A DNA stretch of 64,000 nucleotides, from contig JBILDO010000003.1 in the NCBI GenBank assembly GCA_044352585.1, positions 39,137 through 103,136 on the forward strand, written 5' to 3'. The translations under genes and the position numbers were made by a program. Below the pieces are notes generated by a model, which did no database searches, had not been told where the DNA came from, and saw only the letters and a list, made by a program, of their open reading frames with translations. The stretch is from Verrucomicrobiales bacterium. GTDB lineage: Bacteria > Verrucomicrobiota > Verrucomicrobiia > Verrucomicrobiales > DEV007. Shown here one piece after another: positions 20,466 through 21,086 of the stretch (positions within the stretch are counted from its first letter, which is position 1; the number at the start of each line of letters is the position of its first letter).

Positions 20466-21086
20466 ATGTTTCCGTCCGTGCCCATCCGTTTCCGGTTCCT
20501 CCCCGGACTTCTCGCTCCGCTGCTGTGCGCCTCCTGCCCTCTCGCCGGAAGCGCTCAAGGGATGCAGATCTTTGTCAAAACCCTCACCGGCAAAACGATC
20601 ACCCTCGATGTTGAAGCCTCGGATACGATCGAGAATGTGAAAACAAAGATCCAGGACAAGGAAGGAATTCCACCGGACCAGCAGACCCTCATCTTTGCCG
20701 GGAAAACCCTGGAAGACAACCGGACTCTCTCCGATTACAACATCCAGAAGGAGTCGACGCTCCACCTCGTCCTCGCCGCCCCACCGGTGGTTTCCCCGCC
20801 GGACATGGGACCGGAGATCAGAAAGGTGCGGACGGGGATCCGCCGGATCGCGGGACAGTTGGAACGTTCCGATGACTGCCGAAGGGTCAGGCAGCTCAAA
20901 CTGCGCCTTTCGACTCTCGGGAAGAGGCTCATCGACCTTCTCCGGATTTCCGGCGCCGCACCCTCGGCCATCGAACGCGAACGTCGGACCGTGGAACGGA
21001 TCCGCCTCTCCGCCTCCTGCTCGAGCGGGTTCACCGGTAGCCCGGACCACCGCAGGGTCCTCTATCCACGCTACATCGGGCGCTGA
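20466..21086 (+). CDS. Putative exported protein with a eukaryotic-type ubiquitin domain (20562-20774) and a basic C-terminal tail
   Basis: 32-aa leader [32 protein letters not shown], then [71 protein letters not shown] (65/71 identical to human ubiquitin), then 103 aa; no di-Gly. Confidence 0.93.

Follow-up and report, generated by a model that had tools for sequence, protein, structure and literature searches.

A eukaryote-type ubiquitin with a predicted export signal, a lost conjugation tail and a basic helical extension encoded on a bacterial chromosome

The 64,000-nucleotide stretch of DNA analysed here (contig JBILDO010000003.1, positions 39,137 to 103,136; the window in what follows) encodes on its forward strand a protein with a eukaryote-type ubiquitin domain. 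Its gene is flanked by dxs (18174-20093) on one side and, on the other, by a DEAD/DUF3516 helicase gene in convergent orientation (21122-23650). In translation, positions 20562-20789 give 76 ubiquitin-like codons, a span that a preliminary description of this DNA had treated as the whole unit, with AAPP as the tail of the protein. That delimitation is wrong at both ends. The codon at 20790 is not a stop, and the reading frame continues past AAPP to a stop at 21084-21086, which adds 98 residues; it is open upstream as well, where the ATG at 20466 adds 32 residues ahead of ubiquitin Met1. The precursor, from ATG 20466 to the stop ending at 21086, has about 206 residues. Throughout, residue 1 of ubiquitin and of the mature protein is the Met codon at 20562, to which the precursor adds 32 residues. 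Start-codon calls differ between resources, with JGI beginning at 20562 (174 amino acids) and ENA and Logan at the upstream ATG (206 or 205 amino acids); an exact look-up of a 207-residue product with a GTG start gave no match, and the 174-residue JGI and 206-residue ENA versions both exist. The codon-position G+C content of 20466-20561 is compatible with a coding frame. Five proteins make up the subfamily discussed below, namely the window protein, P0001 (locus L001), P0002 (L170), P0003 (L168) and P0004 (L169), and the features of the locus are as follows.

20388-20465, plus strand: conserved upstream block and putative left boundary of the cassette; from about 20388 the sequence is again homologous to L001, another locus (L175) diverges there, and the block may serve as promoter and 5' untranslated region.
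20466-20561, plus strand: predicted Sec (signal peptidase I) signal peptide with n-, h- and c-like regions, Ala at -3 and Gly at -1, conserved in L001, L170, L169 and L168.
20562-20774, plus strand: ubiquitin core Met1-Leu71, a beta-grasp domain with T42, T49 and N53, supported by Pfam PF00240, PDB sequence and fold matches, and the ratio of nonsynonymous to synonymous substitution rates (dN/dS).
20775-20807, plus strand: Pro-rich linker in place of RLRGG, with a predicted local distance difference test score (pLDDT) of about 60 for residues 71-80; A[AD]PPVV in close relatives and PSAPV in P0003.
20808-21011, plus strand: basic three-helix bundle, mature residues 83-150, with Cys106 at 20877-20879 (AlphaFold pLDDT about 90).
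21012-21086, plus strand: disordered C-terminal tail with Cys153 (21018-21020), ending in the conserved PRYIGR and the stop (pLDDT below 50 for residues 156-174).
21122-23650, minus strand: DEAD/DEAH plus DUF3516 (Suv3-like) helicase gene, a conserved neighbour adjoining the ubiquitin gene in 5/5 subfamily loci.

By both its Pfam score and its beta-grasp fold, the core is a PF00240 eukaryote-type ubiquitin. The Pfam match scores 103.2 bits (E=6e-30; gathering cut-off 25.4), the window protein has matches to hundreds of ubiquitin chains in the PDB, and 65/71 core residues (91.5%) are identical to human ubiquitin, the changes being E16D, P19A, A28T, R42T, Q49T and G53N. Structure prediction, which the preliminary description had suggested as a check, returns a ubiquitin fold: the AlphaFold model of residues 1-71 has a pLDDT of about 90 and, in a Foldseek comparison with the PDB, superposes on solved ubiquitin with a root-mean-square deviation of 0.4 Å over 71 residues and a target TM-score of 0.9-0.99. 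Translation also bears out the residues listed earlier, with all seven lysines (K6, 11, 27, 29, 33, 48, 63) and L8, I44, H68, V70 and Q40 retained, R42 replaced by T, AAPP at positions 72-75 and, in addition, V at position 76. Residues 72-76 thus read AAPPV; R72, R74 and G75-G76 are absent, and the sequence AAPPVVSPP stands where RLRGG would be. The protein has no free or deubiquitinase-exposable LRLRGG for E1 activation, as the chain runs 98 residues past AAPPV. Since it has neither Gly-Gly nor a free C-terminus, E1 activation and release by deubiquitinases are impossible, and any activity would have to lie in non-covalent binding. The claim that the protein can be neither activated nor conjugated therefore stands, and the tail loss is systematic in the relatives and in a wider class of proteins described below.

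To find these relatives, the C-terminal extension was searched for by three approaches among 5.8 billion proteins (word index) and 1.84 billion representatives (full HMMER). Only four relatives carrying it were found, with extension identities of 97% (P0002), 71% (P0001), 62% (P0004) and about 30% (P0003). All share a common plan of signal-peptide-like N-terminal extension, ubiquitin, Pro-rich junction, helical domain and tail, and all four have lost the conjugation tail, which is replaced by PSAPV in P0003 and by A[AD]PPV in the closer relatives. Comparing the window with L001, L169 and L168 gives dN/dS values of 0.12, 0.21 and 0.04 for the ubiquitin core and of 0.47, 0.47 and 0.53 for the extension. 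Such low values show purifying selection on the gene, which is thus no relic, although its rate of evolution exceeds that of the neighbouring helicase: in the comparison of the window with L168, identity is 91% for the helicase (dN 0.05), 79% for the ubiquitin core (dN 0.14) and 31% for the extension (dN 0.77).

The same comparison bears on the proposal that the substitutions in the ubiquitin domain are directed, with the arginines removed and the binding surface spared. Position 42 is T in the window protein, P0002 and P0003, R in P0001 and I in P0004, which indicates relaxed constraint and not a directed, non-random R42T change; of the arginine losses to be looked for in homologues, those of the tail recur in all four relatives, and the residue at 42 differs among them. 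Likewise, the I44 patch and the lysines are preserved in the window copy but not strictly in the relatives, as P0003 carries L8P, I44V, V70I and K33R, and P0004 carries I44V. Random substitution in homologues across this patch and the lysines had been named as an observation that would speak against the proposal, and these two proteins show it in part. Taken together, the aligned sequences fit a release from E1 and deubiquitinase constraint combined with purifying selection on the fold, and not a targeted preservation of the binding patch.

The 32-residue N-terminal extension has two Arg, an 11-residue hydrophobic stretch, small residues, and Ala at -3 and Gly at -1 (AQG), and it directly abuts Met1. 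All five subfamily members conserve it as an open frame. In P0003 it ends in a canonical AxA junction (GTTSAEA/MQIF, the slash marking the predicted cleavage site), and that of L169, read as far as the contig end, also reaches /MQIF. Over the 29 aligned signal-peptide codons of the window and L169 there are 0 indels and 0 stops, with 6 synonymous and 10 nonsynonymous changes; the h-region swaps hydrophobic for hydrophobic residues and the c-region is invariant. Going by sequence shape and the comparison among relatives, the product is most likely exported via Sec, with signal peptidase I cleaving after AQG, right before ubiquitin Met1. On reading the sequence, a lipoprotein signal was ruled out because neither signal-peptide Cys lies in a lipobox, and a twin-arginine translocation (Tat) signal because the twin arginine is absent.

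Downstream of the linker, AlphaFold predicts helices at mature residues 83-102, 106-130 and 134-150 (pLDDT about 90), followed by a disordered tail (156-174). The extension is very basic, with an isoelectric point (pI) of 11.5 and 20 Arg in 103 residues; that of P0003 has a pI of 10.2. Invariant in the extension are an RS..C motif, a heptad-like series of Leu, LL...G, three Arg and a second Cys. Alignment of the tail shows a Cys, one Pro and three Arg invariant in four sequences, and all five members finish in R. Cys106 opens helix 2 and Cys153 comes after helix 3; an up-down-up bundle would bring both to one and the same end, making a Cys106-Cys153 disulfide plausible, and such a bond would fit an oxidising, extracytoplasmic location. 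The extension (residues 106-207 in precursor numbering) has no Pfam or NCBIfam match even at E up to 1, and the window protein contains no membrane or wall anchor, autotransporter barrel, CTERM sorting signal, type IX secretion system (T9SS) tail or S-layer homology (SLH) domain. Foldseek returned for the C-terminal domain generic three-helix bundles alone, all at E above 2, the weak resemblances including ribosomal protein bS20. As fold matches of this kind are merely generic, no function can be derived from them; judged by these searches, the domain is lineage-specific.

The window is bacterial chromosome. A complete ribosomal RNA operon lies at 30929-36117 on the minus strand (5S, 23S, two tRNAs and 16S), about 10 kb from the ubiquitin gene, and its 16S gene contains the EUB338-III target ACACCTACGGGTGGCAGC, which we take to be typical of Verrucomicrobiota and treat as a lead to the identity of the 16S. 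An identical protein with the same neighbours occurs on at least 25 metagenome contigs of up to 82 kb, and the locus is present at 100% in at least 20 lake-water metagenome runs. The G+C content at third codon positions (GC3) is 0.73 in the ubiquitin core vs. 0.84-0.89 in neighbouring genes, indicating that the core is just partly adapted to the host genome. Among the called genes within 6 kb on either side (an ABC transporter, a nucleoside hydrolase, xseB, dxs, the helicase and unknowns) there are no E1 (ThiF), E2 or JAB genes. Phage records contain no match to the protein, and plasmid records only a copy on a Ruminococcus albus megaplasmid and two weak Pseudoalteromonas matches. The helicase is convergent with the ubiquitin gene in the window, L001, L169 and L170, and in tandem with it in L168, a 7.8-kb contig in which a 114-amino-acid open reading frame lies between the two and nothing besides them matches the 64-kb window. 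This adjacency may reflect a functional link or leftover synteny.

Several breaks in similarity help to delimit the cassette. The L175 contig (JGI Ga0453060_0000175) is 99.7% identical to window positions 13674-20388 and then unrelated, continuing into a gene for an alpha/beta-hydrolase-like membrane protein of at least 453 amino acids. Relative to L001 there is an indel of about 190 nucleotides (window 20200-20388), and homology resumes where the L175 break falls. The shared break at 20388 suggests that this position marks the left edge of the cassette and that the locus is subject to structural variation between strains. No sigma-70 consensus was found in the upstream block (20388-20465). 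Within the cassette, the window and L001 form a mosaic (19901-20700 compared with 20700-21450), in which DNA identity is 96-100% on the left, from the 3' end of dxs through ubiquitin codon 40, and falls to 72-88% on the right, a pattern that implies a recombination breakpoint near 20700, inside the ubiquitin domain. RNA-level constraint on the 5' half of the gene was considered and ruled out, because the 3' end of dxs is likewise 96-100% identical to L001, as a recombination mosaic predicts; Rfam has no RNA family in this region. In a metagenome scan with Dxs for close relatives without the gene, the 80 loci listed (at most 85% identical) have neither the ubiquitin gene nor the helicase nearby and are uninformative on the date of gene gain.

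The closest described counterparts are the ubiquitin homologues of Bacteroides fragilis (BfUbb) and B. ovatus (BoUbb). Signal peptidase I cleavage of BfUbb aligns the mature protein with residue 1 of human ubiquitin, and the secreted, active product has no Gly-Gly (PMC3352274, PMC5705921, PMC11467351, PMC11901371). The window protein resembles these homologues in being a eukaryote-type ubiquitin in a bacterium, in its (here predicted) signal peptidase I signal ending at Met1, in lacking Gly-Gly and hence being non-conjugatable, in having no ubiquitin system nearby, and in being lineage-restricted and horizontally acquired. The differences are also substantial. Mature BfUbb has 76 residues and is 63% identical to human ubiquitin (PMC3352274), as against 91.5% for the window protein, and this gap suggests separate acquisitions of the two sequences. 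A C-terminal Cys of BfUbb forms an intramolecular disulfide that is essential for targeting a peptidyl-prolyl isomerase (PPIase) (PMC11901371), whereas the ubiquitin domain of the window protein has no Cys and is followed by about 100 residues of Pro-linker and basic three-helix domain with a Cys pair of its own. Finally, the host is a lake bacterium with a verrucomicrobial-looking 16S and not a gut Bacteroides. The window protein is therefore best described, from its predicted processing, as architecturally BfUbb-like, its mature form differing from the 76-residue, Cys-terminated one of the narrower family.

Other systems match less well. The fusions Ub-eL40 and Ub-eS31 and the ubiquitin-extension effectors of nematodes, which are secreted and also have a signal peptide (PMC5705921), resemble the window protein in placing a basic extension after ubiquitin. 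They keep RLRGG and are cleaved by deubiquitinases, in contrast to the AAPP junction seen here, and the extension has no eL40 or eS31 family or fold match. Bacterial ubiquitin-like conjugation operons have E1, E2 and JAB genes, and the window has no such neighbours within 6 kb on either side.

A survey with the window protein against one genome per prokaryote species found at least 467 stretches that encode close ubiquitin relatives. Class-wide counts were drawn from the best 80 of these loci, i.e. those that resemble the query most. In 51 of them, a single ubiquitin domain directly follows a signal peptide that ends at Met1 (52 proteins, as L072 has two), with junctions such as AMA/MQIF, AFS/MQIF and AVA/MQIF; by its predicted signal peptide and single ubiquitin domain, the window protein belongs with them. 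Members are found on the complete chromosomes of Pseudomonas danubii and Limnohabitans sp. DCL3, and further in Dyella, Ruminococcus albus, Cohnella, Rhodopirellula, Novipirellula, many metagenome-assembled genomes (MAGs) of Verrucomicrobiota, and Methanothrix. The C-terminal modules of the 52 proteins include 14 autotransporter beta-domains, 3 IPTL-CTERM signals, 2 T9SS tails, one SLH and one OmpA domain, and Ig-like or beta-helix repeats; 4 proteins consist of signal peptide and ubiquitin only. The surface-anchored members share with the window protein a Sec signal at Met1, one ubiquitin, a degenerate 72-76 tail and a Pro/Thr-rich linker leading to a C-terminal module, but carry recognisable anchors or surface domains where the window protein has its novel basic bundle.

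Core residues 1-71 of the 52 proteins are on average 92% identical to human ubiquitin, a value biased upward by the selection of the loci most similar to the query. L8, K27 and K29 are kept in 100%, H68 in 98%, V70 in 90%, I44 in 88% and R42 in 87% of the proteins; the figures then fall along the tail, to 67% for R72, 44% for L73, 37% for R74, 29% for G75 and 13% for G76. NCBIfam has no model for signal-peptide ubiquitin proteins, and the copy on the R. albus 7 megaplasmid is annotated merely as "ubiquitin family protein". Our literature search returned no description of such proteins outside Bacteroides, which is no proof that none exists.

Several further loci in the survey deserve mention. 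About 13 of the best 80 are short polyubiquitin contigs that represent eukaryotic contamination; the contigs filed as bacterial are L017, L024, L057, L060, L062, L063, L065, L066, L070, L074, L076, L078 and L079, encoding polyubiquitin or Ub-eL40 with intact RLRGG. L013 and L032, both MAGs of Methanobacteriota, have no signal peptide right before ubiquitin, which is preceded there by a longer N-terminal region. L025, an actinobacterial MAG (Microthrixaceae), encodes two paralogues without an adjoining signal peptide, with Thr/Pro-rich linkers and a C-terminal LAFTG plus membrane segment resembling a sortase signal. The autotransporter-linked ubiquitins of L015 (the P. danubii chromosome) and L021 (Neptunomonas antarctica) independently have T42 or S42 together with T49, as in the window protein.

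The explanation we favour, at somewhat better than even odds, is that the window gene encodes a ubiquitin mimic that is exported, cannot be conjugated and exerts its effect through binding, the basic helical domain serving to anchor or target it. On this account, a eukaryote-type ubiquitin domain would have been acquired through horizontal transfer. The precursor of about 206 residues would enter the Sec pathway and be cut by signal peptidase I after AQG, leaving ubiquitin Met1 as the mature N-terminus, and the mature protein would consist of ubiquitin, the Pro-rich linker, the very basic three-helix bundle, probably stapled by Cys106-Cys153, and the short disordered tail. Activity would be exerted via non-covalent binding, with the basic C-terminal domain holding or targeting the protein on an anionic surface and the ubiquitin domain as the functional face that is presented. 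The same mode of presentation, on autotransporters or with sorting-signal anchors, is seen in many other prokaryotes.

A number of observations weigh against an exported mimic. The hydrophobic core of the signal peptide is short and contains prolines, the JGI callers begin at ubiquitin Met1, neither ATG (20466 or 20562) is preceded by a clear Shine-Dalgarno sequence, and the case for export is built on sequence shape and comparison. The subfamily comprises five sequences in all, of which two pairs are close. Drift of the I44 patch within it weakens canonical ubiquitin-binding domains as the target. Expression is weakly supported by RNA: in freshwater metatranscriptomes, two short contigs of a relative about 94% identical cover 20489-20701, including the signal-peptide region, and all further RNA signal can be traced to eukaryotic ubiquitin transcripts (loose ends RLRGG-MQI or RLRGG-GKKK). 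In addition, a helical domain rich in Arg might equally be expected of a nucleic-acid binder in the cytoplasm, and an RNA-helicase-like gene is the constant neighbour of the ubiquitin gene.

These last points lead to a different explanation, in which translation from Met 20562 gives a cytoplasmic protein of 174 residues whose ubiquitin fold and nucleic-acid-binding helices work with the DEAD/DUF3516 helicase. We regard this as unlikely. The helicase adjoins the gene in 5/5 loci, including L168 with its otherwise different neighbourhood, and the pI of 11.5, the weak resemblance to bS20 and the JGI start would all suit a cytoplasmic role. Convergent orientation in 4/5 loci, however, means that the two genes are not co-transcribed there, and with helicases 91% identical the adjacency may be plain synteny. 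A start at 20562 would also leave unexplained why the upstream 29-32 codons are open, signal-peptide-shaped and conserved in every member, with a canonical AxA site in P0003; signal peptide plus ubiquitin is the class-wide pattern, and a conserved Cys pair is commoner in exported proteins.

Slightly more doubtful still is the idea put forward in the preliminary description, that the protein is an intracellular decoy in a eukaryotic cell, binding ubiquitin-binding domains or serving as an acceptor-only chain terminator. The window copy, with its seven lysines, its I44 patch, its lost tail and a core 91.5% identical to the human protein, has the features expected of a decoy. The idea is not new, having been proposed in 2011 for BfUbb as an inhibitor of host ubiquitination, when this protein was found to bind human E1 and to block ubiquitination in vitro (PMC3352274). 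Access to the eukaryotic cytosol would be needed, yet no route is evident, the gene belonging to a free-living-type lake bacterium with no injection system or host association in evidence. Moreover, a 100-residue domain is attached to the ubiquitin, and relatives alter L8, I44, V70 and K33. A free decoy or chain terminator as originally stated is hard to reconcile with a bacterial chromosomal gene, a likely cleavable export signal and a fused C-terminal domain.

It is very improbable that a eukaryotic gene recently transferred to the bacterium persists here as a functionless, neutral relic whose tail has simply decayed. A GC3 of 0.73 vs. 0.84-0.89 in the neighbours and the presence of just four relatives among billions of proteins would be expected of a recent arrival, but the open reading frame is intact in five diverged lineages, core dN/dS is 0.04-0.21, the protein has gained a signal peptide and a folded C-terminal domain, and the sequence is identical in at least 20 lake metagenomes. 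Eukaryotic contamination or chimeric assembly, the cause of about 13 of the best 80 "prokaryote" ubiquitin loci, has a negligible chance of explaining a single domain with a bacterial signal peptide that lies between dxs and the helicase on contigs of up to 82 kb from many independent samples, 10 kb from a bacterial rRNA operon.

If the exported mimic is the correct explanation, the question becomes what it binds. A eukaryotic ubiquitin-binding partner in a grazer or host is a reasonable candidate, if one we put clearly below even. BfUbb has since been found to kill other B. fragilis strains, its target being a periplasmic PPIase and its import occurring through the TonB-dependent ButCD (PMC5705921, PMC11467351, PMC11901371). 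By analogy, a rival bacterium might be the target here too, which we think rather less probable than a grazer or host; the rest of our expectation falls on something else.

Ubiquitin is a textbook example of a near-invariant protein found in eukaryotes only. To our knowledge, the Bacteroides homologues are the only bacterial ubiquitins that have been studied, and B. fragilis was reportedly described in one 2018 paper as the sole bacterium known to have a ubiquitin homologue. The present locus points to a far more ubiquitin-like copy (91.5%) domesticated by an abundant lake bacterium, in which the protein would have acquired a signal for export and a novel C-terminal domain and shed every conjugation determinant. 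It offers a natural experiment on which ubiquitin residues remain constrained when E1, E2, E3 and deubiquitinases are absent. Together with the wider class it also poses a testable question, namely what authentic ubiquitin does outside a prokaryotic cell, with interbacterial killing, adhesion and interference with ubiquitin receptors of grazers or hosts as candidate roles. We suggest, tentatively and with low confidence, that the window gene is one tip of a large, broadly distributed class, spanning many bacterial phyla and some archaea, in which an approximately 90% identical ubiquitin forms the mature N-terminus of exported proteins and the conjugation tail is decaying. If so, extracellular display of authentic ubiquitin would be a common prokaryotic strategy, most plausibly directed against the ubiquitin-recognising machinery of protist grazers or hosts.

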